Positions 1-14,216 are shown, counted from the first letter of the stretch. The stretch is 64,000 nucleotides of DNA from Syntrophus sp. (in: bacteria) (GCA_025355725.1 JANXZC010000079.1:2680-66679), one strand, 5' to 3'. A program made the numbers and translations. The notes: generated by a model not told the origin, from the sequence alone.

Positions 1-2637
1 ACGCTCAAGCGCATCGAGGAGGCCTTCGGATACCAGAGCAGCGTATTCATCGAATGCTATCGTATATTGACCGCCTGGTTCCGGGAAGCCCAAAGATACG
101 GCGAGGTACAGGTTGCCTTCGAGCAGTGGCGCAAGTTTCTCAGTGTCGCTTATGGGTCCTTCGACGCTCGGGAAACCATCTTTCTCATCCACACCTATCT
201 CAGCGTTTTCGCCAAAATGTTGGCCTACGCCTTCATTTCCAACGATGATTACATGAGCGATGAGGAAATCGGGGAAATTATCGACGGCAGCATCTTTCAG
301 AAGCGCAACATAGGCAACTTTGTTGATAACGATTTCTTTCACTGGGTCAAAGGGGACCAGAGCTTCCGGAATCTGCGGAAGGCATTCCGCTTGATTGCCC
401 AGGAGATCTCCCGGTTCGACTTTACCGACGTGGACGAGGACGTCTTGAAAGGCGTCTATCAGGAACTCATCGATCTCGACACCCGCCGCGCCCTGGGGGA
501 ATATTACACCCCCGATTGGCTTTGCGAGCGTATCGTCGGTGAATTCACATTTTCCCCCGGCGACAGGATTCTGGATCCCGCCTGCGGCAGCGGTTCCTTT
601 CTGAGGGCAGCCATCCGGCGGATGAGAGAGATCAACCCCGATATGACTGTAGAGGACATCAATGATGCGGTTTACGGCATCGACATCCACCCCTTGTCGG
701 TGCAAATCGCCAAGACGACCCTCTTGCTGGCCCTGGGCAAGGGCGTTATCTGTGCAAAAAGGCCGATCCATCTGAATATTATCCTTGCCAACACCCTCTT
801 GGCCCCCGAAGGCGTGGAGGATCTTTTCGGCAATGAGTTTACACTGCCCATAGACAAGGAGAAATACGTTCTGAATACGCAGGTCTTTGAAGACGTCCAT
901 CTGTTTGACGACGCCCTGGACACGTGTGAGGAATTGTCCGCCTGGGATCTGCATCAGCCGAAGAAGAACAAGAAAGAATTTTCAACCATCCTGAACCGGC
1001 GTGTCTTAAGCGGCGTCAATCGCTTGCAGGCGGACAGTTTTTACGAGATATATCTCGGGCTGAAAAAGGTCAAGGAACAGGGAAGGGACAGCATCTGGAA
1101 ATTCATCATTCAGAACCTCTACAAGCCCTATTTCCTTTCCGGTAAATTTGACTTTATCATCGGCAATCCGCCCTGGTTCACTTACAGTGCCATTAAAAAC
1201 GAAGAATATCAGAACATTCTGAACGTATTGGCCGAACGGTACGACGTGAAGCCCGAAAAGGCCGCCAACTATCCCCATCTGGAGATTGCCGCCATCTTTC
1301 TGGCCCACTGCGGAGCTTATTTTCTGAAAGAAAAGGGTAGGCTGGCCTTTGTCCTGCCGCGGAGTTTCTTCAGCGCCGATCACCACGACAATACCCGCAG
1401 TGGCCGGGCCTTGGGCTATCGAATCTCCCAGATGTGGGATTTGCAGGACGTCTCCCCCCTGTTCCGTGTTCCCGCTTGCGTCCTTTTCGCTGAAAAGGCG
1501 GAAGGAAAGAAAAAGCGCCATCTTCCGGCGACCGGGGTTCCGGGAATCGCCTTCAACGGCAACCTGCCCGCCCATAATTGCAATCTCCAGGCGGCGTCGC
1601 CCCGGCTTCACGAAAGGCCAGTAAACTGGTTTTACGCCAAGCAGGGACGGGCCTCGGCCTTCTCGACCAAGAAAACGAAACCGACAACCATTGAGAATCC
1701 CTACAAGAAACGATTCCGGCAGGGCGCCACGATCGTCCCCCGGGCATTTTACTTCGTCGAACTGGACCAGGCGCCGCCCCCCGACTTTGAAGACCGTATG
1801 ATCTCAATCAAAACAGCCCCCGCCATTCAGGCCGACGCCAAGGCGCCTTGGAAAGGCATCACCCTGAGTGGGAAGATCGAAAGCCGCTTTTTGTTCCGGA
1901 CGGCCATCGCCCGAAGCATCCTGCCCTTTGCCCTTCACGATCCTTCCCTGATTGCGCTGCCCGTGACGGCGGAACGTAACACCCAGGGAGACAAAAGCAT
2001 TCGCCTCTATGCCCCCGATGAGCTCCTCCGGGAGGGCTGGCTGAACGCCGCCCGCTGGTTCAGAAATGTAGAAAACATCTGGAAAACGGCGCGAACCGAA
2101 AAGAATCAGACCATCAGCAGCGAAAACTATCTGAACTGGCAGCACAAACTGACGGAGCAGTCCTTGGACGCCCCCTGGCTTGTCCTGTACAGCGCCTCCG
2201 CCAAGGACGCCAATGCCGTCGCGATCCGGCGCGACGACCTCGACCGGGATTTTTTTGTCGATCACACAACCTACTGGTTTGCCACAAATGACCCGGAAGA
2301 GGCTTATTACCTGACGGCCATCCTCAATTCCACTGTCCCCAACGCCCTGATGAAGGACTTCCAGGCCAAGGGTTTGTTCGGAGAACGGCATGTTCATAAG
2401 AAGATCCTCGATGTCTATTTCCCCGCGTTCGACCGGAACAATGCCGCCCATCTATCGCTTGCCGCCCTCGGCCGGACGGCCCACGAACAGACCGCCGCGT
2501 ATCTGAAGGAAAACCCGCCGCTTCCATTTCTCACCGCCCTTCCCCTGGGCCGTCTCCGGCTGAGCATCAAGGGTCGGATGACTGAAGAAATGAGCAAAAT
2601 CGATAAAACTGTCCGGCAGATCATGGCCGACTCTTGA
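1..2637 (+). CDS. N6-adenine DNA methyltransferase, Eco57I/type IIG-like (gamma-class motif order), 5' end cut by the window edge
   Basis: Frame 1 is open from nt 1, with no stop before the TTG at 67, so the gene begins upstream of the window. Motif X GEYYTP is present, as are SAM motif I DPACGSGSFL (nt 571-600) and catalytic motif IV GNPPWF (nt 1162-1179). About 380 aa follow the methylase core and could be a target-recognition region. Confidence 0.8.
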   Translation, partial: TLKRIEEAFGYQSSVFIECYRILTAWFREAQRYGEVQVAFEQWRKFLSVAYGSFDARETIFLIHTYLSVFAKMLAYAFISNDDYMSDEEIGEIIDGSIFQKRNIGNFVDNDFFHWVKGDQSFRNLRKAFRLIAQEISRFDFTDVDEDVLKGVYQELIDLDTRRALGEYYTPDWLCERIVGEFTFSPGDRILDPACGSGSFLRAAIRRMREINPDMTVEDINDAVYGIDIHPLSVQIAKTTLLLALGKGVICAKRPIHLNIILANTLLAPEGVEDLFGNEFTLPIDKEKYVLNTQVFEDVHLFDDALDTCEELSAWDLHQPKKNKKEFSTILNRRVLSGVNRLQADSFYEIYLGLKKVKEQGRDSIWKFIIQNLYKPYFLSGKFDFIIGNPPWFTYSAIKNEEYQNILNVLAERYDVKPEKAANYPHLEIAAIFLAHCGAYFLKEKGRLAFVLPRSFFSADHHDNTRSGRALGYRISQMWDLQDVSPLFRVPACVLFAEKAEGKKKRHLPATGVPGIAFNGNLPAHNCNLQAASPRLHERPVNWFYAKQGRASAFSTKKTKPTTIENPYKKRFRQGATIVPRAFYFVELDQAPPPDFEDRMISIKTAPAIQADAKAPWKGITLSGKIESRFLFRTAIARSILPFALHDPSLIALPVTAERNTQGDKSIRLYAPDELLREGWLNAARWFRNVENIWKTARTEKNQTISSENYLNWQHKLTEQSLDAPWLVLYSASAKDANAVAIRRDDLDRDFFVDHTTYWFATNDPEEAYYLTAILNSTVPNALMKDFQAKGLFGERHVHKKILDVYFPAFDRNNAAHLSLAALGRTAHEQTAAYLKENPPLPFLTALPLGRLRLSIKGRMTEEMSKIDKTVRQIMADS

Positions 2638-2728
2638 CGATATTCGGGAAAAGAAAGGGAAATATCAAGGAACATTCACTTGCCGTTTTTGAAAATTATA
2701 AAATTCGTAGAAGCTAAATTGACATAAA

Positions 2729-2956
2729 ATGATCGATCTCGGGTGCATCTGGGACATCTTCCGGAAACCAAAAGAACAGGGGACAGATTTTTTTTACCAA
2801 CAATTCCAAAAGGGGCAATTTCTAGTAGATGCAGGAATAGCAAGACGCCAGACAGCAGCAGAATATCTCAAGGAACTGGAGAGAATCGGGATTCTGAAAC
2901 CTCACAAAATAGGCAAGGAAACAGCCAGGCAGAAGGTCGAAAGGAGTTTCTCAACC
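2729..2956 (+). pseudogene. Remnant of the C-terminal winged-helix region of a Fic/DOC-family gene, read in frame into dinD
   Basis: The segment FLVDAGIARRQTAAEYLKELERIGILKPHKIGKE matches the conserved C-terminal HTH tail of Fic-family proteins. No Fic core (HxFxxGNGR) lies upstream, and a stop sits at 2720-2722. The real dinD start, with its own RBS, is at 2957. Confidence 0.45.
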
Positions 2957-3814
2957 ATGAGCAAGGGAATAGGGAAAACCACCGGGGGGCATACTTCGCC
3001 TTTCGAACGGATCAAACGTACGAACGATGCAGGGATGGAGTTTTGGTCAAGCCGTGAATTTGCCGGGGTACTGGGTTACGGCGACTATCGCAATTTTGAG
3101 GGGGTAATTGAGAAGGCCAAGTTGTCCTGTTTCAATAGTGGTTACCGTATCGAAGACCATTTCGTTGACGTCACCGAAATGGTCGCCATCGGTAGCGGCG
3201 CGGAACGACCTGTTAAAACCATCCTCCTGTCCCGCTATGCCTGCTATCTGGCTATTCAGAACGCCGATCCAAAAAAGGAGATTGTGGCGCATGGTCAAAC
3301 CTATTTTGCGATCCAGACGCGGCGGCAGGAATTGGCGGACGGACGCATTGAGGATGAGCGGAGGGTTCTGCTGCGCGAAGAGATGCGCCGCCATAATGTT
3401 CAATTGGCCAACGCGGCCAAAGGTGCCGGCGTTATCGAACCCATAGACTACGCCATCTTTCAGAATCATGGGTATATGGGGCTTTACGGCGGGATGAAAC
3501 AGGATGACATTCACCAGCGGAAAGGCTTGAAAAAGAGCCAGAAGATTCTGGATTACATGGGCAGCACGGAACTGGCGGCGAACCTGTTTCGCGCGACCCA
3601 GGCGGAGGAGAAGTTGCGCCGGGACGAGGTGAAGGGAAAAGACGCCGCAAACCGGACGCATCGTGAAGTCGGCGCGAAGGTACGGCAAACCATTAGGGAA
3701 CTGGGCGGCACGATGCCCGAAGAATTGCCGGCGCTGGAAAGCATCAAGAAGATCGAAACCCGGCAGCGCAAGCGACTCGGCAAGGCTGAGACGCCCGAAA
3801 AAAAGAAAAGTTAG
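2957..3814 (+). CDS. dinD: DNA-damage-inducible protein D (DinD, Bro-N family)
   Basis: Long near-identical blocks to E. coli DinD as I remember it: LSRYACYLAIQNADP, GQTYFAIQTRRQELAD, AIFQNHGYMGLYGG, IHQRKGLKKSQKILDYMGSTELAANLFRATQAEEKL, VRQTIRELGGTMPEELP. ATG at 2957 follows AAGGAG (2941-2946). Confidence 0.9.
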   Translation: MSKGIGKTTGGHTSPFERIKRTNDAGMEFWSSREFAGVLGYGDYRNFEGVIEKAKLSCFNSGYRIEDHFVDVTEMVAIGSGAERPVKTILLSRYACYLAIQNADPKKEIVAHGQTYFAIQTRRQELADGRIEDERRVLLREEMRRHNVQLANAAKGAGVIEPIDYAIFQNHGYMGLYGGMKQDDIHQRKGLKKSQKILDYMGSTELAANLFRATQAEEKLRRDEVKGKDAANRTHREVGAKVRQTIRELGGTMPEELPALESIKKIETRQRKRLGKAETPEKKKS

Positions 3815-3995
3815 ATGGACCCGGCCAAGAAGGCGGCGCGACGTGAGGAGGTGTTTCCGGACGACTGCCGGAAGGCGTTCGAGTTCGGTTGCCGGATCGC
3901 TGCAAAGGCATAAAGGGAATTGAAAAATGCCGGGAACTCTTTCCCCGTCCGGATGCAGCCCAGACAAAGGTGAGTAGGGGTGATTATACGCCCGG

Positions 3996-4919
3996 TCAGG
4001 CGGTCTTTGTTTTTAGGTGGCGATAGTATCTCAGGGGGATCACGAGGCTGAAAAAAGGGATAATATACATGGCGGCGACCATCGTTTCGACAGGGCCGAA
4101 GAATTTAGAGGAGAAAACAATCACCAATACATTGTTCATGTTTCCCAGCATGACCGCGCCGGCCAGTTGATTCTCCAGGGAACTTTTCCTGAAAAAGAAA
4201 ATGCCGATGATGCAGTAGATCGCACACAGCACAATGGCAACGACGGACGCCATGACAATCGTATGGGGTTCTTTTTTGAAAAAAGACGAATAGCGCCAGA
4301 ACACCCCCAGATTAATAACGGCAAAAAGCACGAGGGAGATGGGGAAGTGCTTTTTCATCAAATGCATCAGCAGGTCCGGGGTCAGGCGTCTCAGGACTTC
4401 AACGGCCAGAATGGGAACGAAGATCACCAATGCCAGCATGCGGATCATCCCGAAAAGAGAAATCTCCATTTGCTTCGCCGCAACGAGCTCAATCAAGATC
4501 GGCAATGTAATCGGCGTCAGAAAAGAGGTAATGACTACGACGACAAGGACAAGGGAGCTGTTGCCTCTCACGAGATTGGATATGAAGGGGGCCACGACCC
4601 CTGCGGATACACCCGTCAGCAACAGGGCGGACAGGGCATAGGCCGGGGCAAGGAAATCAAAAATGTAAAACAGCAGGACGGGCAGAAGAATGCTTTTCAA
4701 CAGCGTAAAGGTCAGAATTTTCCGGTGATAGCGTTGCAGCGCCTTCCGGACGGCATCCAGTTCGATGGACAGGTAACTGAGAAAAAACAGCGCCATCAGG
4801 CAATACATGGGCATCGCCTGGAAATAAGCGCCGAAGTCGGGGTAAACGATCCCGACGATCATGGAAGAAAGGACCACGAAGACCAGTAGCACATCATTTA
4901 CGCGGAAGGGCAGTTTCAT
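3996..4919 (-). CDS. Polytopic membrane transporter, bile acid:Na+ symporter (BASS/SBF-like) family
   Basis: 307 aa and hydrophobic throughout (about 9-10 TM segments). SAGVVAPFISN and ENQLAGAVMLGN resemble the two BASS signature regions. Family assignment is by pattern only. Confidence 0.55.
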   Translation of the reverse strand: MKLPFRVNDVLLVFVVLSSMIVGIVYPDFGAYFQAMPMYCLMALFFLSYLSIELDAVRKALQRYHRKILTFTLLKSILLPVLLFYIFDFLAPAYALSALLLTGVSAGVVAPFISNLVRGNSSLVLVVVVITSFLTPITLPILIELVAAKQMEISLFGMIRMLALVIFVPILAVEVLRRLTPDLLMHLMKKHFPISLVLFAVINLGVFWRYSSFFKKEPHTIVMASVVAIVLCAIYCIIGIFFFRKSSLENQLAGAVMLGNMNNVLVIVFSSKFFGPVETMVAAMYIIPFFSLVIPLRYYRHLKTKTA

Positions 4920-5024: not shown

Positions 5025-5456
5025 CTATTTCCAGTAGGTGTTCCAAAGCGGTCGGGCAATGCCGTTTTCGTAAGTCATCTCCGAGAGGACGCCGTCCGGT
5101 GTGAGGATGAATACGGCGGCGTCATAACGGAGGAGATTGCCCGTGGCATCCAGCTTGGGGGACGCCTTCAGGACATCACTCATGGGTACGGAGAGGGAGA
5201 GCTGGCCCCCCCGATAAAAAGAACGCTGATAATGGAGGGCGAAATGACCTTTCATGTCAACGATGTCGGAAGGGGCGCCGTAGGAGGCGAGGATGTCTGC
5301 GAGGGTGGTCTTGCCGACGGCAAATTCCTGGGGCAAGGGTTTCACTTCCGCACCGTCGGTGACCTTGTCGATGCGCAGGGAAAGACAGCCCCCGAGGATC
5401 AGGGAGGCAACAAGCAGGACCGCTACCCCAAGGTGGCGCTTAGAACGGCGTCCCAT
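5025..5456 (-). CDS. Small lipoprotein, BamE/SmpA_OmlA-like, paralog of the upstream gene
   Basis: Signal peptide with lipobox LILGGC. The block GKTTLADILASYGAPSDIV aligns with GQTTAAELTKMFGPPSQIV of the neighbour. The start is taken at the internal Met (MGRRSKRHLG); the track ORF extends to 5489. Confidence 0.6.
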   Translation of the reverse strand: MGRRSKRHLGVAVLLVASLILGGCLSLRIDKVTDGAEVKPLPQEFAVGKTTLADILASYGAPSDIVDMKGHFALHYQRSFYRGGQLSLSVPMSDVLKASPKLDATGNLLRYDAAVFILTPDGVLSEMTYENGIARPLWNTYWK

Positions 5457-5817
5457 AAGCGGCCGTGTCGGTTTTGAAGCTGCTGCCATAGTGGGTCACC
5501 ACGTCGTTTTTGTTGATAAAAAAGACCAGGCGATCATGCTGGATGTCATAATTGGCAAAGGTTACCAGCACCAGCCAGACGCCCGTGGCCTTGCTCAGGG
5601 TCCGGTCGTACACATAAGCGTTACCGTTGGCCAGCTTGACAATCTGGCTGGGGGGGCCGAACATTTTGGTGAGCTCCGCGGCGGTGGTCTGGCCGGGTTT
5701 TACCTGGGTGAGGACCTGCTCGTCGAAGGGCCGGAAATCCTTGTTCCGCCCGAAGACCGCACATCCCGACAGGAACGTGATGATCACAATCCCCAAGATG
5801 ATGGTTCTGAATTGCAT
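5440..5817 (-). CDS. Small lipoprotein, BamE/SmpA_OmlA-like
   Basis: MQFRTIILGIVIITFLSGC carries the lipobox FLSGC. ATG at 5817 follows AAGGAG; the track ORF extends to 5841. Confidence 0.6.
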   Translation of the reverse strand: MQFRTIILGIVIITFLSGCAVFGRNKDFRPFDEQVLTQVKPGQTTAAELTKMFGPPSQIVKLANGNAYVYDRTLSKATGVWLVLVTFANYDIQHDRLVFFINKNDVVTHYGSSFKTDTAAYGTPF

Positions 5818-5880
5818 ATCCCTTTTCTCCTTCCTCTTCAATGGAACTGACGCTTTTTCGAAACGGCGGTTGATGCCTTG

Positions 5881-5909
5881 TCTATAGAGGGGATAAACCC
5901 TCCTGTCAA
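5881..5909 (-). promoter_or_regulatory. Candidate sigma-70 promoter for the lipoprotein pair
   Basis: The minus strand reads TTGACA-N17-TATAGA (TTGACAggagggtttatcccctcTATAGA). It sits between the ligase stop (5949) and the lipoprotein start. Confidence 0.4.
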
Positions 5910-5948
5910 GAAATTCAAAATTACCCGGCGGAGATTGCCGCGTTCCAT

Positions 5949-7487
5949 TCAGGCCGGGTCCAGCCGCTTTTTCAAGATCCGTTTCAGGACCTTCCCCGCC
6001 TGGTTCCGGGGAAAGGCATCGACGAAGATGATCTTCCGGGGGATTTTATAGGGGGCGATCTTGCCCTGCAAGGCCGTCAAGATTTCGCTTTCCGTGATCA
6101 CGGCCTCTTTTTGCAGGACAATGAAGGCCGCCACCGCTTCCTCCCGCTTGGGATCGGCCATGGCCACCACGGCCGCCTCGGCGATCTGGGGGAGGGCCTG
6201 GAGGGCCCTCTCCACCTCGACGGGATAGATGTTTTCCCCCGACGAAATGATCATCTCCACCTTGCGGCCGATGATGTAGACAAATCCTTCATCATCGCGC
6301 CGGCCCATGTCGCCGGTGTGAAACCAGCCCCCGGCCATGGCCGTATTTGTCGCCTCCTCCTTCCGCCAGTATCCCTGGAAGATATTCGGTCCCTGGACGA
6401 TGATCTCGCCCGCCTCGCCCGCGGGGATATCCCGGTCCTTTTCATCGACGATGCGCAAACGGACGTGAAAGACCTCTTTGCCGACGGAGCCGGCTTTGCG
6501 AATCGCTTCTTCGAGATCGAGGGACGTCAGGCGCCCGGTTTCCGTCAGGGCATAGCCCTGGACGAAACCGACGCCCTTTTCTTCCTGGTACTTCCGGATG
6601 ACGGGCAGCGGTATCGGCGCGCCGCCGGAGATGAAAAAATGGACGTGGGAGAGATCGGCGGCCGGCCAGTTCTCCGTTTCCGTCATTAACTGAAACATGA
6701 CGGGGACGGCGAACATGTAGTTGATCTTTTCCGCCTCGATCAGCTTGAGCGTCTCCGCGGCGCTATAGAAGGAACTGATCACGATGCTGCCGCCGGCGTA
6801 AACGATGGGCGTCACCGATGCTGCCAGGGCGCCGATATGAAAGAGGGGGGCCACCACCAGGGACTTGTAGGAACGGTCCACGCCATAGCCCAGGAGGGAA
6901 TGGATGGCCCCGAAGAGGACATTCCCGTGGGTCAGGACGGCTCCCTTGGGGTCTCCCGTCGTCCCGGCGGTGTACATGATGAAAAGAGGGTCTTGCAGAT
7001 CCACGTCGTTCGGGTCTGCAGGCTCTGACGCCGGGCAACGATCGACCCGCTCCTCAAACGGAGGATCATTGGGCGGAGGATTGTCGGGAAGGGAATCGCC
7101 TCCGTGGCGGAAATAATGGGTCAGGGCCAGGCCGGCCGCTTTCAATTCGCCCACTTTCGGGGCAAACTCGGCGTCATAGATCAAAATCCCGGGTTCGGCG
7201 TCCTTCATGATATACATGAGCTCCGGCGCGGCGAGGCGGAAATTCAGGGGTGTTACGACCACTCCCAGCTTGGCGCAGGCGAAGAATATTTCCAGAAACT
7301 CGCTGCGGTTGGACATGAGCAGGGCCACCCGGTCGCCTTTGGCGACACCGCAACCTTTCAGGGCATGGGCCGTTCGGTTCACCCGCTCGTTGAACTCCCG
7401 GTTGGTGAAGATGCGGTCCTTATCTTTCAGGAAGTTATTTTCCGGGCGGACGATGGCCCGCTTTTGGATCCATTCGCCGATGTTCAA
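5949..7487 (-). CDS. ANL-superfamily adenylating enzyme (acyl/aryl-CoA or -ACP ligase)
   Basis: AMP-binding motifs YTAGTTGDPKG, GYALTETG, FHTGDMG, GRKVEMIISSGENIYPVEVE and PRNQAGKVLKR. The TTG start overlaps the upstream stop as TTGA. Confidence 0.85.
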   Translation of the reverse strand: MNIGEWIQKRAIVRPENNFLKDKDRIFTNREFNERVNRTAHALKGCGVAKGDRVALLMSNRSEFLEIFFACAKLGVVVTPLNFRLAAPELMYIMKDAEPGILIYDAEFAPKVGELKAAGLALTHYFRHGGDSLPDNPPPNDPPFEERVDRCPASEPADPNDVDLQDPLFIMYTAGTTGDPKGAVLTHGNVLFGAIHSLLGYGVDRSYKSLVVAPLFHIGALAASVTPIVYAGGSIVISSFYSAAETLKLIEAEKINYMFAVPVMFQLMTETENWPAADLSHVHFFISGGAPIPLPVIRKYQEEKGVGFVQGYALTETGRLTSLDLEEAIRKAGSVGKEVFHVRLRIVDEKDRDIPAGEAGEIIVQGPNIFQGYWRKEEATNTAMAGGWFHTGDMGRRDDEGFVYIIGRKVEMIISSGENIYPVEVERALQALPQIAEAAVVAMADPKREEAVAAFIVLQKEAVITESEILTALQGKIAPYKIPRKIIFVDAFPRNQAGKVLKRILKKRLDPA

Positions 7488-8758
7488 TGTTCTTCCTCCT
7501 CTTCTTGGGAATGTGAAAAGACAAGGTAAACGTAGGTCCCGCCGAAGGAGATGCCGGCGAGGAGGGCATGCTCAATGGGCAGCGCCTTCGTTTTACCCTT
7601 GACGAAAGCAAGGGCGCTCAGGGGCTCCGCAAGCCCGACCGTCGGGGGGAGTGCCCCCTTTTCCAGGGACAGGGCCAGGGCGCAGGCCCGCATGCCCCCT
7701 CCGGAGAAACTCTCCCCGAGGGCGCCCTTCAGCGACGTGATGGCAGGACCGTTTTTGTCCTTGACGCCGGCAAAGATATCGGCATAGGCCGCCGCCTCCA
7801 CGGCATCCAGGATCAGGCCGCCGTTTGCCGCCGCCGAGACGGCCTGAATATCTTCGGGGCCAATGCCCGCATTGTCAAGGGCGCGCCGGATTGTCCGCTT
7901 GATGCCCGCCGGATCGGTGGGCCACTGGGTCGGCGGCGTCGGCGACGACCCCATGCCCATGCCGGTTAATTCACAATAGGGCTTCCGCCCTCTGGCCCTG
8001 GCCGACTCCCGGCTTTCCAGGCAGAGGATGCCGCAGCCTTCCCCGACGACCATGCCGTTGCGGTCCCGATCAAAGGGATGGCAGGCCTCCGTTTTTCCGT
8101 TCCCCGGAGAAAGGGCATAAAACCGGCTGAGGGCCTCAAAATAGAAGGGGGAGATGATGTCTGCGCCCCCGGTGAGGATGTAATCGGCGGCGCCGCGCCG
8201 GATTTCGGCGATGCCGTAGGCCAGGGCTGCCTCGGCGGAAACGGCGAAGTGGGTGACGGTGACGTTGACGCCGCGAAAACCCAGCTCGATGGAGGCGTTC
8301 CCCGCCGCCGCGTTCAGGACCGTGTTCGGCACCAGGATGGGGTTGACGAAGGAAGGACCCTCCTTAATCAGTGTTTCTGCCAGGTGGACGGTGACATCCG
8401 TGGCGCCGAAGGCCGTCCCCATCAGGATGCCGATGCGGTCGCGGTTGGCCAAATTAACTGCAATGCCCGCGTCTTCCAGGGCCAGACGCGCTGCCGCCGT
8501 CGTCAGTTGGGAGATCCGGTCCATCCGGCGCAGGTTTTTAAGGGAAATGAAATCGCGGGGCGAGAAATCGGTCACCTCCGCCCCCAGGTGGGAGGGAAAA
8601 TTATCGGTCGGAAACGATTTTATGTCGGAAATGGCACTCTCCCCCGAAAAAAGCCTGCTTCCAAAGGCCTCCTTGCCGACACCCAGCGGGGTCGCCATCC
8701 CGATGCCGGTCACGACGACCCGCCCGGAGTCTTCGGGGTGGGGACGATGGTTACCCAT
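7484..8758 (-). CDS. Ketosynthase-like protein lacking the Cys-His-His triad (chain-length-factor-like partner)
   Basis: KAS I/II fold is evident (VVVTGIGMATPLG, HPFDRDRNGMVVGEG). The catalytic positions read THFAVSA (Cys to Phe171), SAAANGG (His to Ala) and LKGALGESF (His to Glu). The C-terminus is SHSQEEEEEH. The start overlaps the upstream KS stop by 8 nt (ATGGGTAA). Confidence 0.8.
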   Translation of the reverse strand: MGNHRPHPEDSGRVVVTGIGMATPLGVGKEAFGSRLFSGESAISDIKSFPTDNFPSHLGAEVTDFSPRDFISLKNLRRMDRISQLTTAAARLALEDAGIAVNLANRDRIGILMGTAFGATDVTVHLAETLIKEGPSFVNPILVPNTVLNAAAGNASIELGFRGVNVTVTHFAVSAEAALAYGIAEIRRGAADYILTGGADIISPFYFEALSRFYALSPGNGKTEACHPFDRDRNGMVVGEGCGILCLESRESARARGRKPYCELTGMGMGSSPTPPTQWPTDPAGIKRTIRRALDNAGIGPEDIQAVSAAANGGLILDAVEAAAYADIFAGVKDKNGPAITSLKGALGESFSGGGMRACALALSLEKGALPPTVGLAEPLSALAFVKGKTKALPIEHALLAGISFGGTYVYLVFSHSQEEEEEH

Positions 8759-10103
8759 GGTCGGCGCTCCCGTTGGGGTATTTCCCGAAGATCACCGTGG
8801 TGTTGTTACCCCCGAAGGCGAAGGAGTTGGAGAGGACCGCCCTGAGTGCCGCCGGTCGCGCCCCTTCGGTGATGTAATCGAGGTCGCAGCGGGGATCAGG
8901 ATCGCGGTAATTAATGGTGGGCGGCATAAATCCGTGGGCCAGGGCCAAAAGGGAGACAATCCCTTCCAGGGCTCCGGAGGCGCCCAGGGTATGGGCCGTC
9001 ATCGACTTGGTCGAACTGACCGGAACGGCGTAGGCGCGCCTGCCGAAGACTTCCCTGATCGCCATGGATTCCATGGCATCGTTGACCGCTGTCGCCGTGC
9101 CGTGGGCATTGATGTAGTCGATATCCTCCGGTCCGAGACCGCTGTCTTTCAGGGCTGCCTCCATGGAGCGAATGGCGCCGGAGGCCTGTTCGTCGGGAGA
9201 GGTCATGTGATGGGCGTCGCAGGTGACGCCGTAACCCAGGATCTCCCCGTAAATCCTAGCGCCCCGTGCGAGAGCTCCATCCAGTGGTTCCAGGACCATG
9301 ACGGCTGCCGCCTCGCCCAGGGAAAGGCCGCCGCGGTGGCGGTCAAAAGGCCGGCAGACATCCGGATCGAGGGATTTCAGGGCATTGAAGGAGGAGTAGG
9401 TGATCCGGCACATGGGTTCCGTACCACCGGCGAGCATAATTGACGCCTGGCCGTTGCAGATGAGGTCACGGCCGTAGCCCAGGACGGTCGCCCCGGATGA
9501 ACAGGCGGTCATCAAGGTTATTTTGGGGCCGAGGAGGCCCAAAAAAGTGGCGATGCGATCGGTGGAAGAGGCGCAATAGACGGAGGAAAGGCGGGAAAAA
9601 TGTGCCTTGCCGTTTCCTTTTTGCAGCAGGTCGCTATAGAAGCTCTCCCCCTCCAGCAGCCCCCCCGAGCCGCCGCCGATGGCCACGCCCATGTCTTCTT
9701 TCATCGCTTCCGGGAGGGGGTAGAGACCGGCATCCCGGAGGGCCTCCAGGGTGGCGGCAAAGGCGAGGAGATCGGCCCGGGACATTCTTTTCAGCGGAAA
9801 TTCCTCGGGTATGAAGGAGCGGGGGAGAAAATTCCGGATCTGGCCGCCCTTTCGGCAGCGGTATCCCGTCGTATCGAAGAGGTCTATCTCCCCGATGCCG
9901 CAGCTCCCTTCCCCAAGGGCGCGGACGAATTCGGGAATATTATTTGCGATCGCGTTTATGGTGCCCATACCGGTGACGACAATACGTTTTTTCTTGTGCA
10001 CAGCCGACCATTCCTCTGAAGTCGCGAGATTTTTATGATCGAACTTAAATGGGGTCAGGCGAAAAGTCAAACGATTATCGTTTTTTGAAAAGCCATTGCC
10101 CAA
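8751..10103 (-). CDS. Beta-ketoacyl synthase (KAS II/FabF-like), catalytically intact
   Basis: Active-site Cys in TACSSGA and the two His in INAHGTAT and KSMTAHTLGASG. A more likely start is the GTG at 10001 (VHKKKRIVVTGMG), preceded by GAGGA. Confidence 0.85.
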   Translation of the reverse strand: MGNGFSKNDNRLTFRLTPFKFDHKNLATSEEWSAVHKKKRIVVTGMGTINAIANNIPEFVRALGEGSCGIGEIDLFDTTGYRCRKGGQIRNFLPRSFIPEEFPLKRMSRADLLAFAATLEALRDAGLYPLPEAMKEDMGVAIGGGSGGLLEGESFYSDLLQKGNGKAHFSRLSSVYCASSTDRIATFLGLLGPKITLMTACSSGATVLGYGRDLICNGQASIMLAGGTEPMCRITYSSFNALKSLDPDVCRPFDRHRGGLSLGEAAAVMVLEPLDGALARGARIYGEILGYGVTCDAHHMTSPDEQASGAIRSMEAALKDSGLGPEDIDYINAHGTATAVNDAMESMAIREVFGRRAYAVPVSSTKSMTAHTLGASGALEGIVSLLALAHGFMPPTINYRDPDPRCDLDYITEGARPAALRAVLSNSFAFGGNNTTVIFGKYPNGSADHG

Positions 10104-13100
10104 GGGACGATATTCGTGTAATGAAAAACGCGTGAAAATATTGTTCTATAAGCACAAATATTTCCTGAGACGATTCTTGGCGGCCCTGGTGATTCTCGCT
10201 GTGGCGGGGCTTTTTGCCGTCGGACTCCAGCGCCTGCAATTCGATTCCAATATCCTGGCGTCCCTTCCCCAGGACGACCCCGTTTTGGCCGACGCCCACT
10301 ACCTATTCACCCGCCATCCGATCTATGACCGGGTGGCGGTCGATGTAGCCGGCGGGGGAGGCAAAACGAATGTCCTGGAAGAAGGAGCCGACCTAGTGGA
10401 AACGAGGATGCGGGAAAGCGGTCTCTTCAAGGACGTGGGCTTTCGGCAGATCAGCCGGCTGGTCCCGGAACTGATGGGCCATGTCGTTGACCATCTCCCG
10501 ATCCTTTTTGGTGCGGGGGAGCTGGAGCGGGAGATCCTTCCCCGCCTTGCCCCCGCGAGCATTCATCGCACCCTGGACGAGCAGATCTCATCCCTTCAGG
10601 ACCTGGGAGGGATCGGCCAGACCGGTTTTCTCACCGTCGATCCCCTGGCTTTGCGCAACCTGGTCCTTGCCCGGCTGTCTTCCCTGGCGCCGGCCAAAAA
10701 CGCCCGCTTTCAGAACGGGAAGCTCCTGTCGGCAGATGGAAAACACATCCTGATCGTAGCGGAGCCCATAACCTCCGGCATGGATACGCGGCAGGCGGCC
10801 CGCATTGCGGCGCTCCTGGAAGGCATCTCCCGGGAGTTGGACGGTAAATACGGCGGGAAGGGAGGCTTTACCCTGACGCCTGTCGGCGCCTACCGGGCCG
10901 CCCTCGATAACGAGACGAGTGCCAAGGCCACGGTCAAGAAGGCGGTGCTGTTTTCGACGGTGGCCATTGCGCTGCTTCTTTTCGCCGGCTTTCCCCGGCC
11001 CCTGATCGGTCTCCTCTCCCTCCTTCCGGCTTTTGCCGGAACCATGATGGCGTATTTTGTCTACTCCCTTTTCCACGGGACCATCTCCTTTATGGCCGTA
11101 GGTTTCGGCAGTGCGATCATTTCCTTTACCGTCGATTACGGCATTACGTATCTTTTGTTTCTGGATCGGCCTTACGAAACGCGTGGCCTGGAGGCGACCA
11201 AAGAAGTCTGGTCCCTGGGGCTCCTCGCCATGCTGACTACGGCGGCGAGCTTCGCCTTTCTCTCCTTGAGCGGATTTCCCGTTCTGGCGGAGATCGGCCA
11301 GTTCACGGCCCTGGGAGTCGTCTTCACCTATATCTTCGTCCATCTCGTCTTCCCCCTGATCTTTCCCGTTCTGCCCCCGGCAAAGCGGCCACCCTATCTG
11401 CCGCTGATGCGTTTTGTCCAACGCATCTCCTCCGCCGACAGCATGGGGAAGACCTATGTTGTCCTGGTCTTCATGTTTATCATGCTGTTTTTTGCCAAAC
11501 CGGAGTTTAATGTCGATCTGAGTTCGATGAATGCCATGAGTCCCCAGACGCTCCGCGCCGATAAACTCGTCCGGGAGGTCTGGGGGGATGTGATGAGCAA
11601 GGTCCATCTGCTGGTGGAAGGACGGGATCGGCAGGACATGCAGCGCAAATGCGACCTCCTGACCGGCCTGTTGAACGAAGAAGCAGCCGCGGGCAGGGTT
11701 TCCGGGTTTTTCGTTTCATCCCTGATTTTTCCCGGCGAGGAAGAGGCGCGGAAAAATGGTGCGGCCTGGCAAAACTTCTGGAGTCCCGAACGGATTGCCG
11801 GACTCCGCCAAGTCATGGGAGACGCCTCGCGGCAGGTGGGGTTTGCCCCGGGGGCCTTTACCCCATTTTTTACCTTGCTTCAAGGCAGGGGAGATGATCG
11901 ACATCTTTTGACGGCCACGGATCTTCCGGAGCGCTACGCCCCCCTTTTGGGCATCAAGGCAGGGCAAAACGGCGGAACATGGACCCAGGTCGTCTCCGTG
12001 ACCCCCGGACCGTCCTATAATGGGGAGGATTTTTACCTGCGTCTGACCGCCACCGGCCTGGTGCGGGTATTCGATCCGGCCCTCTTTACGAAACATCTCG
12101 GGGCCCTCCTGATGTCCGCCTTCGTCAAGATGGTCGGGATTGTGGCCCTTGTCACCTTATTGACCGCCTTTTTCTACTTCCTGGACTGGCGGCTGACCCT
12201 TCTTGGCCTGGTGCCGACGCTGTTTGCCATGATCTGCACCCTCGGCACCCTGAATCTTTTGGGAGAACCCCTCGGCATCCCGACGCTCATAGTGTCCGTA
12301 GTGGTCATCGGCATGGGGACGGACTACGCCCTCTATCTTGTCCGTTCCTATCAGCGCTACCTCGATGACGACGACCCCTCCCTGGGGCTCGTCCGCCTGT
12401 CCGTTTTTCTCTCCTTTGCCACGACTTTTATGGGCTTCTGCATCCTGGCCATCTCGGATAACGCCATGCTGAAAAGCGTGGGCCTGAGTCTGGCCCTGGG
12501 CATCGGCTACTCTTTCCTGGGCGCCGTAACGATTGTCCCGCCCCTGTTGAAGAGGATTTTTGTTCCCGCCGCCCCGACGGAAGAGACCTTCTTGCCGGGA
12601 TCGAAGCGACATCTGGAGCGCGCCGTCGGACGGTATCGGCACCTGGAGTCCTATCCGCGCCTCTTCGCCCGTTTCAAGATCATTCTGGACCCAATGTTCC
12701 CGCGTCTGGCCGACTTTGTCAAAGATCCCGGGGTCATCATCGATATCGGGACCGGCTACGGCGTTCCCGCCGTCTGGCTTCTGGAACTTTACCCCCGGGC
12801 TCGGATCTATGGCCTCGAACCGGATCGCGAACGGGTGCGGTTTGCGTCTCGGGCCATCGGGACGCGGGGCGTCGTTACCGTCGGGGGCGCCCCCGATCTT
12901 CCCGATTTTCCCGTGAAGGCCGACACCGCCCTTATCCTAGATATGATTCACTTATTGACCGATGACGAACTCCGCCTGACCCTGGGGCGTCTTCACGAGC
13001 GGCTCCGTCCCGACGGCGTCTTGATCATCCGGGCGACGGTCCCTTCGACCGTGCCCTTTCCCTGGAAGCGCTGGATCGAGAGGCAGCGGATCAGGCTGCA

Positions 13101-13287
13101 CAAAGGTCGGATGTACTTTCGTACGGAAGCGAATTTACTTTCCATCCTCGGGGAAAGCGGTTTCCCCGTGATCCATACGGAGGCGGGCACACCGGGCCAG
13201 GAGGAGGAGTGGTTTATCGCCCGATTGGAAGAGGCTTCGGACGGGGAAGTGGTCCCACCGCTGCCGCCGGCAGGGGAGGGCGCATGA
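10096..13287 (+). CDS. MMPL/RND-superfamily exporter fused to a C-terminal class I SAM-dependent methyltransferase
   Basis: Topology is 1+5 TM, soluble loop, 1+5 TM, as in MMPL/HpnN-type exporters. A soluble C-terminal domain follows with motif I IIDIGTGYG (about nt 12745-12770) and LRPDGVLIIR. An alternative start is the GTG at 10132. Confidence 0.75.
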   Translation: MPKGRYSCNEKRVKILFYKHKYFLRRFLAALVILAVAGLFAVGLQRLQFDSNILASLPQDDPVLADAHYLFTRHPIYDRVAVDVAGGGGKTNVLEEGADLVETRMRESGLFKDVGFRQISRLVPELMGHVVDHLPILFGAGELEREILPRLAPASIHRTLDEQISSLQDLGGIGQTGFLTVDPLALRNLVLARLSSLAPAKNARFQNGKLLSADGKHILIVAEPITSGMDTRQAARIAALLEGISRELDGKYGGKGGFTLTPVGAYRAALDNETSAKATVKKAVLFSTVAIALLLFAGFPRPLIGLLSLLPAFAGTMMAYFVYSLFHGTISFMAVGFGSAIISFTVDYGITYLLFLDRPYETRGLEATKEVWSLGLLAMLTTAASFAFLSLSGFPVLAEIGQFTALGVVFTYIFVHLVFPLIFPVLPPAKRPPYLPLMRFVQRISSADSMGKTYVVLVFMFIMLFFAKPEFNVDLSSMNAMSPQTLRADKLVREVWGDVMSKVHLLVEGRDRQDMQRKCDLLTGLLNEEAAAGRVSGFFVSSLIFPGEEEARKNGAAWQNFWSPERIAGLRQVMGDASRQVGFAPGAFTPFFTLLQGRGDDRHLLTATDLPERYAPLLGIKAGQNGGTWTQVVSVTPGPSYNGEDFYLRLTATGLVRVFDPALFTKHLGALLMSAFVKMVGIVALVTLLTAFFYFLDWRLTLLGLVPTLFAMICTLGTLNLLGEPLGIPTLIVSVVVIGMGTDYALYLVRSYQRYLDDDDPSLGLVRLSVFLSFATTFMGFCILAISDNAMLKSVGLSLALGIGYSFLGAVTIVPPLLKRIFVPAAPTEETFLPGSKRHLERAVGRYRHLESYPRLFARFKIILDPMFPRLADFVKDPGVIIDIGTGYGVPAVWLLELYPRARIYGLEPDRERVRFASRAIGTRGVVTVGGAPDLPDFPVKADTALILDMIHLLTDDELRLTLGRLHERLRPDGVLIIRATVPSTVPFPWKRWIERQRIRLHKGRMYFRTEANLLSILGESGFPVIHTEAGTPGQEEEWFIARLEEASDGEVVPPLPPAGEGA

Positions 13288-14216
13288 AGGCAGCCTTCTA
13301 TCGTTTCCTTGTCGCTTTATCGCAACGAATCGGCCTCTGGGTCTTCCGGGTCGGGGCCTGGGGAATCGCCTCGGGCTATTTTCTCTTTTTTCCGGGCCGG
13401 GTGGCCGTGGGGGTCCGCTTTTATGGGGCCCTCTATCCCGAACGCGGGGGGCTGTATCGCCTTTGGTGCACCTGGAAACAGTTCCACAGCTTTACCCACG
13501 TCTTCCTTGACCGTTTCCTCCTCGCCGGCGGGCAGGGAATCACATATACCCATGAAGGATGGGAATACCTGGAAGAGGCAGTAGCCAGCGGGACCGGCGG
13601 CATCATTCTCATGTCGCACGTGGGTAACTGGGAGGTAGCCTCCCGCATCCTCCAGGAGCGGGAAAGGGAAAATCCCCGAATAAAACTGCTCCTGTATCTG
13701 GGGAAAAAACACAAGGAGCAGATTGAACGGACCCAGAAGGAGAGTCTTGTCCAGAGCGGCGTGCGGATCATCGCCGTAGATCAGGATGGGGGCTCTCCCA
13801 TGGACCTTGTCGAGGGAATAAACTTTCTGAAGGCGGGTGGACTGGCTTCCCTGACGGGCGATCGCCGGTGGCGCGATGATCAGCGGTCCGTGGCGGTGAG
13901 ATTTTTTGGGCATGAAGCCTTCCTCCCGGAGACGCCTTTCATCTTTGCCCTGTTGTCCGGTGTTCCCTTATTCATTTTCTTTGTCTGCCGGACGGGGAGC
14001 CATACCTACCATTTCCAGGTCCTGCCGCCGGTTGTGGTCCGGGCGAAAGACCGGCAGAGCCGTGGGGATGCTATCCGGAGAGCGGCGCAGTTCTACGCCG
14101 ATCGCCTGGAGGAAACCGTGCGGGTGCATCCCTTTGAATGGTTCCATTTTGAGCCGTTTATCGGGAGCGAAAGATACCAAAGCCAACACGCCGGAAATGA
14201 TCGCCCCGGATCATAA
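13284..14216 (+). CDS. Lysophospholipid/lipid A-type acyltransferase (LpxL/HtrB family)
   Basis: HX4E box MSHVGNWEVA, an N-terminal membrane anchor and a family-typical size. ATG at 13284 overlaps the exporter stop as ATGA; the track ORF begins at 13209. Confidence 0.8.
   Translation: MKAAFYRFLVALSQRIGLWVFRVGAWGIASGYFLFFPGRVAVGVRFYGALYPERGGLYRLWCTWKQFHSFTHVFLDRFLLAGGQGITYTHEGWEYLEEAVASGTGGIILMSHVGNWEVASRILQERERENPRIKLLLYLGKKHKEQIERTQKESLVQSGVRIIAVDQDGGSPMDLVEGINFLKAGGLASLTGDRRWRDDQRSVAVRFFGHEAFLPETPFIFALLSGVPLFIFFVCRTGSHTYHFQVLPPVVVRAKDRQSRGDAIRRAAQFYADRLEETVRVHPFEWFHFEPFIGSERYQSQHAGNDRPGS

Follow-up and report, generated by a model that had tools for sequence, protein, structure and literature searches.

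A ketosynthase, exporter, and acyltransferase locus of Syntrophus sp. as a probable detached sub-cluster of a larger aryl-polyene-type pathway of Syntrophales

Does a locus that joins two ketosynthase genes to an exporter and an acyltransferase, and that has no carrier protein or reducing enzymes of its own, make up a complete biosynthetic system, or is it one part of a larger pathway? This question is raised by a 64,000-nt stretch of DNA from Syntrophus sp. (GCA_025355725.1, JANXZC010000079.1:2680-66679), referred to here as the window, in which the locus studied spans positions 5025-14216 (all window coordinates are those of the whole stretch). An initial annotation had read its seven genes as a self-contained, pared-down system related to aryl polyene (Ape) clusters. 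Ape-type clusters are regarded as the most widely distributed family among the biosynthetic gene clusters of bacteria and, to our knowledge, studies of them have been confined to a few Gammaproteobacteria and Bacteroidota. Here, the locus is probably the condensing and anchoring/export sub-cluster of a larger Ape-type type II polyketide synthase/fatty acid synthase (PKS/FAS) pathway that occurs throughout Syntrophales, separated from the other genes of that pathway.

All seven open reading frames were recovered at or near the positions first given, and the domain calls were correct by Pfam and NCBIfam. The minus strand carries an active FabF-like ketosynthase (KS1, 8751-10001), a full-length, catalytically dead KS partner resembling a chain length factor (CLF; KS2, 7484-8758), a predicted accessory ANL acyl/hydroxycinnamoyl-CoA ligase (LIG, 5949-7487), and two small lipoproteins (LP1, 5440-5841; LP2, 5025-5489). 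On the plus strand lie a 12-transmembrane (TM) ApeM-like MMPL/RND exporter with a C-terminal class I S-adenosylmethionine (SAM) methyltransferase (MMPL-MT, 10096-13287) and an LpxL-family PF03279 acyltransferase (LPLAT, 13284-14216). The overlaps that had been described between KS1 and KS2 (8 nt, ATGGGTAA), KS2 and LIG (TTGA), and MMPL-MT and LPLAT (ATGA) are all present.

The case for separation begins with the gene neighbourhoods of relatives, which were drawn from look-ups of individual homologues, a scan of reference genomes, and a metagenome scan with the KS2 family alignment (80 loci), with all parts mapped onto every locus by tblastn; loci are cited below by L numbers. The reference-genome scan with KS2 alone gave four loci, near-identical or irrelevant, and the taxonomic breadth comes from metagenome contigs. 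The dominant arrangement is a single long cluster (L062, L071, L048, and L086). It opens with an outward-facing gene for an ApeH-like ligase, followed in the other direction by genes for an ApeP-like dehydratase (DH), an SDR ketoreductase (KR), LolA, a hypothetical protein, and a phytoene-desaturase-like (PDH-like) amine oxidase; next come an 88-aa PP-binding acyl carrier protein (ACP), a third ketosynthase (KS3), PlsC, a nitroreductase, KS1, KS2, and optionally LIG and an acyl-CoA dehydrogenase (ACAD); and the series ends with a B12-binding/radical-SAM-like protein, an aromatic amino-acid ammonia-lyase (511 bits), a 4HBT thioesterase (TE), a Dak2-DegV protein, and a glycosyltransferase (GT) of the GT2 type. 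In L064, L066, L068, and L083, the cluster carries on with the exporter-methyltransferase and the PF03279 acyltransferase, and some full clusters also hold a polysaccharide deacetylase. KS1 lies immediately 5' of KS2 in 58 of 58 loci. At least three genes of the rest of the cluster (hereafter the remainder) stand 3' of KS2 in 29 of the 32 informative loci, namely those with 8 kb or more of sequence downstream of KS2. In relatives, orthologues of the window's genes are thus linked to ApeP-, ApeQ-, ApeL-, ApeK-, ApeH-, ApeR-, ApeD-, and ApeE/F-like genes and to the aromatic ammonia-lyase. The initial annotation had proposed checking whether the KS genes and the exporter and acyltransferase genes stay linked in relatives. 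This linkage recurs in independent arrangements (L006, L028, L064, and L083), but an MMPL-MT of the window's type is found in 3 of 26 loci.

Close relatives show the same core joined to the remainder. L028 (KS1 76% and MMPL-MT 64% identical) has the window's exact core, with MMPL-MT and LPLAT divergent from KS1, KS2, LIG, LP1, and LP2, and this core is directly adjoined, on the other strand, by GT2, DegV, 4HBT, lyase, B12, hypothetical, LolA, and KR genes. On a 44.5-kb contig (KS2 84% identical), the core without the ligase lies ~3.4 kb from a remainder made up of an outward-facing ApeH-like gene and then ApeP-like, KR, LolA, hypothetical, B12, lyase, 4HBT, DegV, GT2, and B12-radical-SAM genes. 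In L014 (~90% nucleotide identity), B12-radical-SAM, GT2, and DegV genes stand immediately 3' of LP2. Finally, Syntrophus sp. SKADARSKE-3 (GCA_030920355.1) has the core genes, including LP1 and LP2, on contig 6 and the remainder block on contig 1, and is thus a split system within one genome. The idea of a self-contained, pared-down architecture was not supported by this comparison, since the same orthologues lie within or beside a full Ape-like cluster in relatives, including those 84-90% identical to the window. The apparent minimalism of the locus is probably the outcome of genome rearrangement and cluster fragmentation. It had been foreseen that a full Ape cluster elsewhere, with its own copies of these functions, would make the locus a fragmentary duplicate; the ACP, KR, and DH functions would indeed fall in a separate locus, but that locus is without its own copies of the window's genes, and the window therefore probably holds a complementary fragment and not a duplicate.

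Gene products were compared by BLASTP with the apeA-R cluster of E. coli CFT073, with lpxL, and with the fab cluster; the Ape core set was taken as the KS genes apeO/apeR, the CLF apeC, the ACP genes apeE/apeF, the DH genes apeI/apeP, the KR apeQ, and the transporter apeM (Grammbitter et al., 2020). The window's exporter matches ApeM (E=6e-11, 21% over 358 aa, with two further segments), as expected of an ApeM-type transporter, and its acyltransferase matches the C-terminal half of ApeJ (residues 318-548, E=2e-12). In relatives, the KR is 45% identical to ApeQ, above FabG; KS3 is 39% identical to ApeR; the ApeP-like protein is 30% identical to ApeP; the 4HBT protein matches ApeK over its full length, as the 471-aa ligase of the remainder block (AMP471) does ApeH; and PlsC, the ACPs, and GT2 match ApeD, ApeE/ApeF, and the N-terminal half of ApeJ, respectively. 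The relatives also carry ApeP-like PF22817 and ApeI-like PF22818 proteins, and an ACP is encoded in L062 (PP-binding, 36.6 bits) and L011 (43% to ApeF). Where ApeJ and ApeD are concerned, the window holds the ApeJ C-terminal part only, the GT2 half and the ApeD-like PlsC being confined to relatives. Kinship with aryl-polyene and flexirubin-type clusters, as originally proposed, is thus upheld by the ApeM and ApeJ matches and by linkage to Ape genes in relatives, but not the assignment of the window's ligase and acyltransferase as the Ape adenylating enzyme and ApeD. A literature search on aryl polyenes in connection with Syntrophus, Smithella, or Desulfobacterota returned nothing relevant.

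The two KS proteins carry PF00109 and PF02801, with a weaker C-terminal match in KS2. Aligned with E. coli FabF, ApeO, and ApeR, KS1 has its catalytic residues intact (TACSS, NAHGT, STKSM, and TAHTL), and in KS2 all three are replaced, Cys by Phe, His by Ala, and His by Glu, with the Lys kept (HFAVS, SAAAN, SLKGA, and LGESF); both states had been read correctly at the outset. The dead-site pattern is kept across 26 family members of 65-94% identity, which argues for KS2 as a non-catalytic partner that is being maintained rather than a pseudogene in decay. Homologues of KS2 reach 94% identity in metagenome-assembled genomes of Syntrophales and 65-74% in Smithellaceae and Syntrophus, which places the organism within Syntrophales, and KS2 forms a separate clade in a small neighbour-joining (NJ) tree. 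The locus thus has the FabF/dead-FabF arrangement, that is, the gene of an active FabF-like KS next to one for a full-length FabF-like protein that lacks the Cys-His-His set. Judged by its sequence, KS2 appears to be a functional analogue only of ApeC, a dead KS in the right position.

The exporter-methyltransferase is as first described, with MMPL/HAE3 matches and the methyltransferase at about residues 870-1030 of 1063 aa. Its Pfam matches comprise MMPL (27.5 bits; cutoff 20.5), a sterol-sensing domain, and several class I methyltransferase models. Hydropathy gives an RND-like 1+5/1+5 layout of TM1, a ~240-aa loop, TM2-6, TM7, a ~200-aa loop, TM8-12, and a cytoplasmic methyltransferase. The fusion is a conserved family of ~1030 aa with 1323 matches. 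Searched against the PDB, the methyltransferase domain gave remote matches only (best 33 bits) and no clue to a substrate. Two classes of MMPL-MT were observed: one shares at least 55% identity with that of the window, is transcribed divergently from KS1, and occurs together with LP1/LP2 (window, L002, and L028); the other is 42-46% identical, co-directional after GT2, and without LP1/LP2 (L064, L066, L068, and L083). KS2 identity is alike (64-70%) in sets carrying either class, and the classes may be paralogous subfamilies.

LPLAT scores 57 bits against PF03279 (cutoff 22.3), and its translation contains the HVGNWE sequence reported earlier, an HX4D/E box. Its best named relatives are a phosphatidylinositol mannoside acyltransferase and the C-terminal half of ApeJ (ApeJ-C), and it has no BLASTP match to E. 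coli ApeD or LpxL at E<0.01. Membership in LpxL/HtrB would thus denote a fold family and not a lipid A function, and the earlier label of lysophospholipid acyltransferase gives way to ApeJ-C, not ApeD, as the counterpart. LPLAT adjoins MMPL-MT in L002, L010, L012, L014, L015, L017, L028, and L064. LP1 has a lipobox (LSGC), a likely start at ATG 5817 (125 aa), and no Pfam match; LP2 has a lipobox-like LGGC. Their description as two paralogous lipoproteins holds for the lipoproteins, but the paralogy is weak (23% identity, E=7e-7, BLASTP). The two co-occur in L001, L002, L006, L014, L015, L017, and L028. Since orthologues of both (68% and 51% identity) lie divergently 5' of MMPL-MT/LPLAT in L010, where there are no KS genes, LP1 and LP2 belong with the exporter and not with the KS operon.

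In the proposed mechanism, a KS1:KS2 heterodimer would serve as the elongating unit of a highly reducing type II system, a FAS-like character being expected because relatives carry a reducing KR/DH set. KS1 would condense, and the dead KS2 would shape the substrate tunnel and set chain length, like ApeO:ApeC and amxFabF2:amxFabF-mut. The starter-forming ammonia-lyase, the ApeH-like loading ligase, KR, DH, thioesterase, GT2, LolA, and probably an ACP would be encoded elsewhere in the genome, while LIG would be an optional extra that converts a hydroxycinnamate or fatty acid into its CoA thioester. ApeJ-C has been proposed to move the ACP-bound chromophore onto GalNAc of the lipid anchor (bioRxiv 10.1101/2020.12.19.423268; PMC8253772), and the published roles of ApeJ, ApeD, ApeM, ApeB, ApeL, and ApeN are given in the same sources. 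By analogy, the PF03279 enzyme would do the ApeJ-C job, transferring the finished ACP-bound chain to a sugar-bearing lipid (glycolipid) anchor, and the exporter-fused methyltransferase would methylate the product at the cytoplasmic face, the job of ApeB. The RND/MMPL part would then export the lipid to the outer membrane together with LP1/LP2 and the LolA of the other locus, LP1 and LP2 acting as periplasmic or outer-membrane partners of the exporter (an ApeN/ApeA-type job).

Several observations weigh against a separated Ape-type sub-cluster. The remainder genes are absent from all 64 kb of the window. Neither was a dedicated ACP seen in the L093, L010, or 44.5-kb versions; borrowing of AcpP is possible for that one function, since the window's own lineage yielded no dedicated ACP. 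LP2 lies next to an SBF transporter gene in the window, L001, L002, and L017, sometimes with an insertion between (3.2 kb in L002, 10051-13244), and because these loci share the junction, the sub-cluster is stably stand-alone in the lineage. The DegV proteins closest to the window lineage (P0241 and P0243) are on short contigs, unbinned or in other assemblies, and among them no genome with the LP2-SBF junction was seen with the remainder elsewhere. On the side of the enzymes, FabF scores slightly above ApeO/ApeR in BLASTP for both KS1 and KS2 (for KS1, identity is 39% with E. coli FabF and 36% with ApeO/ApeR), KS2 has no BLASTP match to the truncated, 240-aa ApeC at E<0.01, and the methyltransferase domain has none to ApeB. 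KS1 joins ApeO and another cluster KS at just 48% bootstrap in the small NJ tree, which holds few references. Lastly, B12/radical-SAM, PDH-like oxidase, and Dak2-DegV genes are absent from characterised Ape clusters, and the product may for this reason not be a classical aryl polyene.

The alternative that survives best accepts a real multi-locus system and gives it a non-aryl product, a polyunsaturated or tailored fatty-acyl lipid or hydrocarbon, as proposed for the FAS-II-like clusters of anammox bacteria and Desulfotalea. In its favour, full clusters hold the PDH-like amine oxidase, B12-binding/radical-SAM, and polysaccharide deacetylase genes together with a dead, full-length FabF. Dead FabF paralogues are on record in syntenic clusters with B12-radical-SAM and phytoene-desaturase-like genes, an unusual methyltransferase, a deacetylase, and a new membrane protein in anammox bacteria, Desulfotalea, Geobacter, and Pelobacter (PMC2649909; PMC4790861). 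This unusual set is described for kuste2802-2805, kuste3335-3352, kuste3603-3608, and Desulfotalea (PMC2649909; PMC4790861), and deltaproteobacterial relatives of the anammox clusters had been noted by 2009 (PMC2649909). Kuste2805 is tabulated with Phe/Lys/Glu at the positions where KS2 has Phe/Lys/Glu (PMC2649909). Among the best PDB matches of KS1 and KS2 are, respectively, the active and the dead FabF-like chains of PDB 9s5h, a solved KS heterodimer whose dead chain, 9s5h_C, KS2 resembles. The anammox amxFabF2/amxFabF-mut heterodimer is a functional KS/CLF-like complex (bioRxiv 10.64898/2026.05.19.726425), and 9s5h is, from its chain properties and timing, very probably this heterodimer; a literature search for the code 9S5H found no paper. 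Against a non-aryl product, the conserved ammonia-lyase and the ApeH-like ligase point to an aryl starter, as in flexirubin-type pathways, and ApeP/ApeI-like dehydratases, an ApeQ-like KR, an ApeK-like TE, and a split ApeJ are Ape hallmarks. We consider a non-aryl product unlikely.

An autonomous minimal system is somewhat more doubtful again. Here, the ligase would prime, KS1/KS2 would extend on housekeeping AcpP, FabG, and FabZ, and the product, not an aryl polyene, would be methylated, placed on a lysolipid, and exported. This would fit the tight translational coupling of KS1, KS2, and LIG, the stand-alone LP2-SBF junction, and loci (L008, L009, and L072) in which KS1-KS2 lie without Ape genes within 10 kb. 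It would also fit the absence of an ACP, KR, DH, thioesterase, GT, or LolA gene, which had been noted for 5.0-14.3 kb and extends to the entire window: tblastn (E<0.001) with ACP, KR, DH, TE, LolA, GT, ammonia-lyase (PAL), and DegV queries from related clusters and E. coli found no ACP, KR (even FabG-like), DH, thioesterase, LolA, GT, ammonia-lyase, or DegV gene in the 64 kb. Queries with the ApeH-type ligase and the ApeR-like KS match only the window's own ligase and KS genes. The locus is without ApeE/ApeF-type ACPs, ApeI/ApeP-type dehydratases, an ApeQ-type KR, an ApeH-type ligase, or an ApeC-type CLF. As for the carrier, work on the E. coli Ape system permits AcpP to carry malonyl units (PMC8253772). 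Set against this are the ties of the orthologues to the full remainder in 29 of 32 informative loci and in 84-90% identical relatives, the presence of the remainder on another contig in a genome whose core likewise stands alone, and the ligase itself, which this alternative needs as a primer and which is missing from ~90% identical strains and from about half of the loci.

The ligase evidence runs as follows. LIG carries PF00501 and PF13193, scores 477 bits against NCBIfam PRK06187 (a long-chain acyl-CoA ligase subfamily), at threshold, and has as its best PDB matches a feruloyl-CoA/fatty-acyl-CoA synthetase (8wev/8weu) and FadD13. It aligns with ApeH over the C-terminal 116 aa only (37 bits), a generic C-terminal subdomain, and it is the 460-471-aa ligase encoded in the remainder block that matches ApeH over its full length (100 bits). 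The Ape adenylating role first given to LIG thus passes to that protein, leaving LIG as an accessory gene of the feruloyl/fatty-acyl-CoA-ligase type. LIG follows KS2 in 26 of 55 loci and is cleanly absent from L014, L015, and L017, which are ~90% identical to the window. The alignments end, in window coordinates, at 5839-5846 and 7495-7496 in L014/L015 and at 5971 and 7458 in L017, where ~30 nt at the start of the gene and ~23 nt at its end are retained; the differing ends suggest that LIG was lost by at least two independent deletions.

That KS1/KS2 are housekeeping FabF-type elongation enzymes with an unrelated exporter and acyltransferase as envelope neighbours is very improbable: KS1 does clear the NCBIfam FabF subfamily model PRK07314 (403 vs. 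387 bits), its best PDB matches are FabF structures, and linkage to a window-type MMPL-MT is not universal, but KS1 (408 bits), like KS2 (282), falls under the TIGR03150 FabF equivalog cutoff (493.75 bits), E. coli FabF, ApeR, and KS3 form a group at 100% bootstrap that leaves KS1 out, no fab/acpP genes (of the plsX-fabH-fabD-fabG-acpP kind) occur in the 64-kb window or beside KS1/KS2 among the 80 loci, the dead partner is constant, and the pair sits inside Ape-like clusters in most loci, with recurring MMPL-MT/LPLAT linkage.

Other identities were considered and set aside. An aromatic type II PKS was rejected on the Phe, not Gln, in KS2 and on actinorhodin KS/CLF scores far below those of FabF. 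OleABCD and a mycolate-type FadD32-Pks13-MmpL3 system were rejected because the ligase is accessory and the KS is of the FabF type, not a thiolase or type I PKS. The acpXL-fabF1XL-fabF2XL-lpxXL cluster of Rhizobium, for very-long-chain lipid A, likewise has two KS genes and an LpxL-type transferase; a cluster of this type was dropped since the acyltransferase matches ApeJ-C and relatives carry Ape-specific genes.

Some further features of the window and of related loci can be described. The KS1 gene had been drawn as 8751-10103, the longest open reading frame, from TTG 10103; the gene is real, but its start is almost certainly GTG 10001 (416 aa), with a GAGGAA ribosome-binding site and orthologues of 414-416 aa. 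With KS1 starting there, a true divergent intergenic region of ~95-130 bp exists between KS1 and MMPL-MT (10002-10131); MMPL-MT may begin at GTG 10132, a 96%-identical homologue being 1051 aa long. The region has back-to-back promoter-like, sigma-70-like matches at 10102-10074 (-) and 10085-10114 (+), and in a promoter/terminator scan the sites in 10002-10131 were no more numerous than chance or shuffled expectation. GC content is 0.58-0.62 over 6001-14000, vs. ~0.47-0.54 in the remaining window.

Both flanks are unrelated to the cluster. To the right lie PfkB, DUF4416, YicC, and Gmk. The left flank holds a restriction-modification (R-M) methylase, a Fic/Bro protein, and the SBF transporter, with variable or mobile-type genes (an Eco57I/MmeI-type R-M methylase and the Fic/Bro protein) at 67-4919, at the cluster's left edge. 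In related strains (L094 and L098), DegV-GT2 fragments are preceded by stacked toxin-antitoxin genes. The R-M and Fic/Bro genes together with these toxin-antitoxin modules suggest that mobile or variable DNA repeatedly broke up the cluster. Farther along the window, 26452-53091 (+) is ordinary core chromosome with rpoB, rpoC, EF-Tu, ribosomal protein L1, SecY, and many smaller open reading frames, and this plus-strand block explains why the GC skew is strongly positive at 24-54 kb; at 55-63 kb lie LptD and an OEP/TolC-like gene. At 22013-24322 (+), a 769-aa fusion joins a PLP-dependent PALP (cysteine-synthase-like) domain to CysRS-like catalytic and CysS_C anticodon-binding domains. A canonical 493-aa CysRS is also present (60112-61593, +), and the fusion could be a Cys-ligating or thiol-metabolism paralogue and not a tRNA synthetase.

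Among the related loci, the Ape-like clusters consistently include a conserved fusion of ~572 aa of a Dak2/FakA-like and a DegV (FakB-like) domain, a fatty-acid-kinase-like protein in a single chain (L005 17641-19362, L010 6557-8281, L062 17180-18889, and L093 10001-11719). It has 2895 homologues at E<=1e-50 and no counterpart in the E. coli ape cluster; in L010, a PlsY gene lies near it. The phytoene-desaturase-like amine oxidase accompanies Ape-like genes in L011 (16224-19426, with an adjoining B12-radical-SAM gene) and L062 (4022-5587). In L008/L009 (6384-13309; HGW-Deltaproteobacteria-13-type), a lone KS1-KS2 pair lies beside a radical-SAM/PqqD/ATP-grasp (TupA-like)/small-ORF set and three glycosyltransferases, which looks like a cluster for a ribosomally synthesised, post-translationally modified peptide or a glycan.

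Taken as a separated Ape-type sub-cluster, the locus points to a distinct Ape-type variant in strictly anaerobic syntrophs, with a full-length dead FabF partner, a split ApeJ, an exporter-methyltransferase fusion, an ammonia-lyase, and radical-SAM/DegV additions, and often split into separate loci. Because it is so frequently broken up, cluster-based genome mining will under-call the variant or take its fragments for novel minimal systems. The variant also connects Ape clusters with FabF/dead-FabF clusters that are as yet uncharacterised, in anammox bacteria and in other deltaproteobacteria, and could offer tractable comparators for the ladderane question. More speculatively, and with little probability in our estimate, the Syntrophales/Thermodesulfobacteriota cluster family may make an outer-membrane lipid of a class not yet described, in which B12-radical-SAM and phytoene-desaturase-like enzymes remodel an Ape-type chain and which would be biosynthetically related to the anammox ladderane-associated clusters, or else the stranded core may, in this lineage, have become autonomous on housekeeping ACP, KR, and DH. 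If the former were true, the exporter-methyltransferase fusion would tie the last tailoring step straight to export.

Compared with known systems, the most distant likeness is to the KS-alpha/CLF pair of type II aromatic PKSs such as actinorhodin, which shares a translationally coupled active KS and inactive KS-fold partner. Homology to the actinorhodin KS and CLF can be detected (220 and 137 bits), at scores far below those of FabF; KS2 has Phe in place of the Gln that marks a CLF at the Cys position, and there are no cyclase or aromatase genes. Flexirubin-type clusters of Bacteroidota combine an ammonia-lyase and CoA/AMP ligases for an aryl starter with type II KS/KR/DH, acyltransferases, a LolA-like protein, and an exporter. 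Syntrophales loci likewise have the aromatic amino-acid ammonia-lyase and ligases, a likeness at the level of the parts list; they differ in taxon and in the radical-SAM/DegV extras, and no DarA/DarB dialkylresorcinol genes were seen in any locus. With the anammox and Desulfotalea clusters, they share an adjacent active FabF-like KS and full-length dead FabF-like partner, and the full clusters share neighbouring B12-radical-SAM and phytoene-desaturase-like genes, as in ladderane-candidate clusters. The anammox dead site also has a hydrophobic residue for Cys and Glu for the second His. In contrast, the dead KS is upstream in anammox and downstream in the window, the anammox pair is accompanied by its own ACP and FabZ, KS1/KS2 are no closer to the 9s5h chains than to ordinary FabF, and the Syntrophales clusters have Ape-specific DH, TE, ApeJ, LolA, and lyase genes.

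The Ape cluster itself (E. coli CFT073 and Xenorhabdus doucetiae) shares with the window an RND/MMPL exporter, an ApeJ-C-type acyltransferase, an active KS whose KS-fold partner is non-catalytic, a SAM methyltransferase, and lipoproteins encoded next to the exporter, to which the relatives add ApeH-, ApeP-, ApeI-, ApeQ-, ApeK-, ApeL-, ApeR-, ApeD-, and ApeE/F-like genes. The differences are as follows. KS2 is a full-length FabF-like protein with a Cys-to-Phe change, whereas ApeC is truncated; the methyltransferase forms one protein with the exporter and has no BLAST relationship to ApeB; the two halves of ApeJ are encoded by separate GT2 and acyltransferase genes; and two small novel lipoproteins stand in place of ApeG and ApeN (DUF3261), homologues of which went undetected. 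The Syntrophales version is scattered across the genome and has in addition the ammonia-lyase, B12/radical-SAM, PDH-like oxidase, Dak2-DegV, nitroreductase, FadD-like ligase, and ACAD genes. In sum, Ape/flexirubin-type clusters and FabF/dead-FabF heterodimers are both known, and the Syntrophales version is an uncharacterised variant of them.

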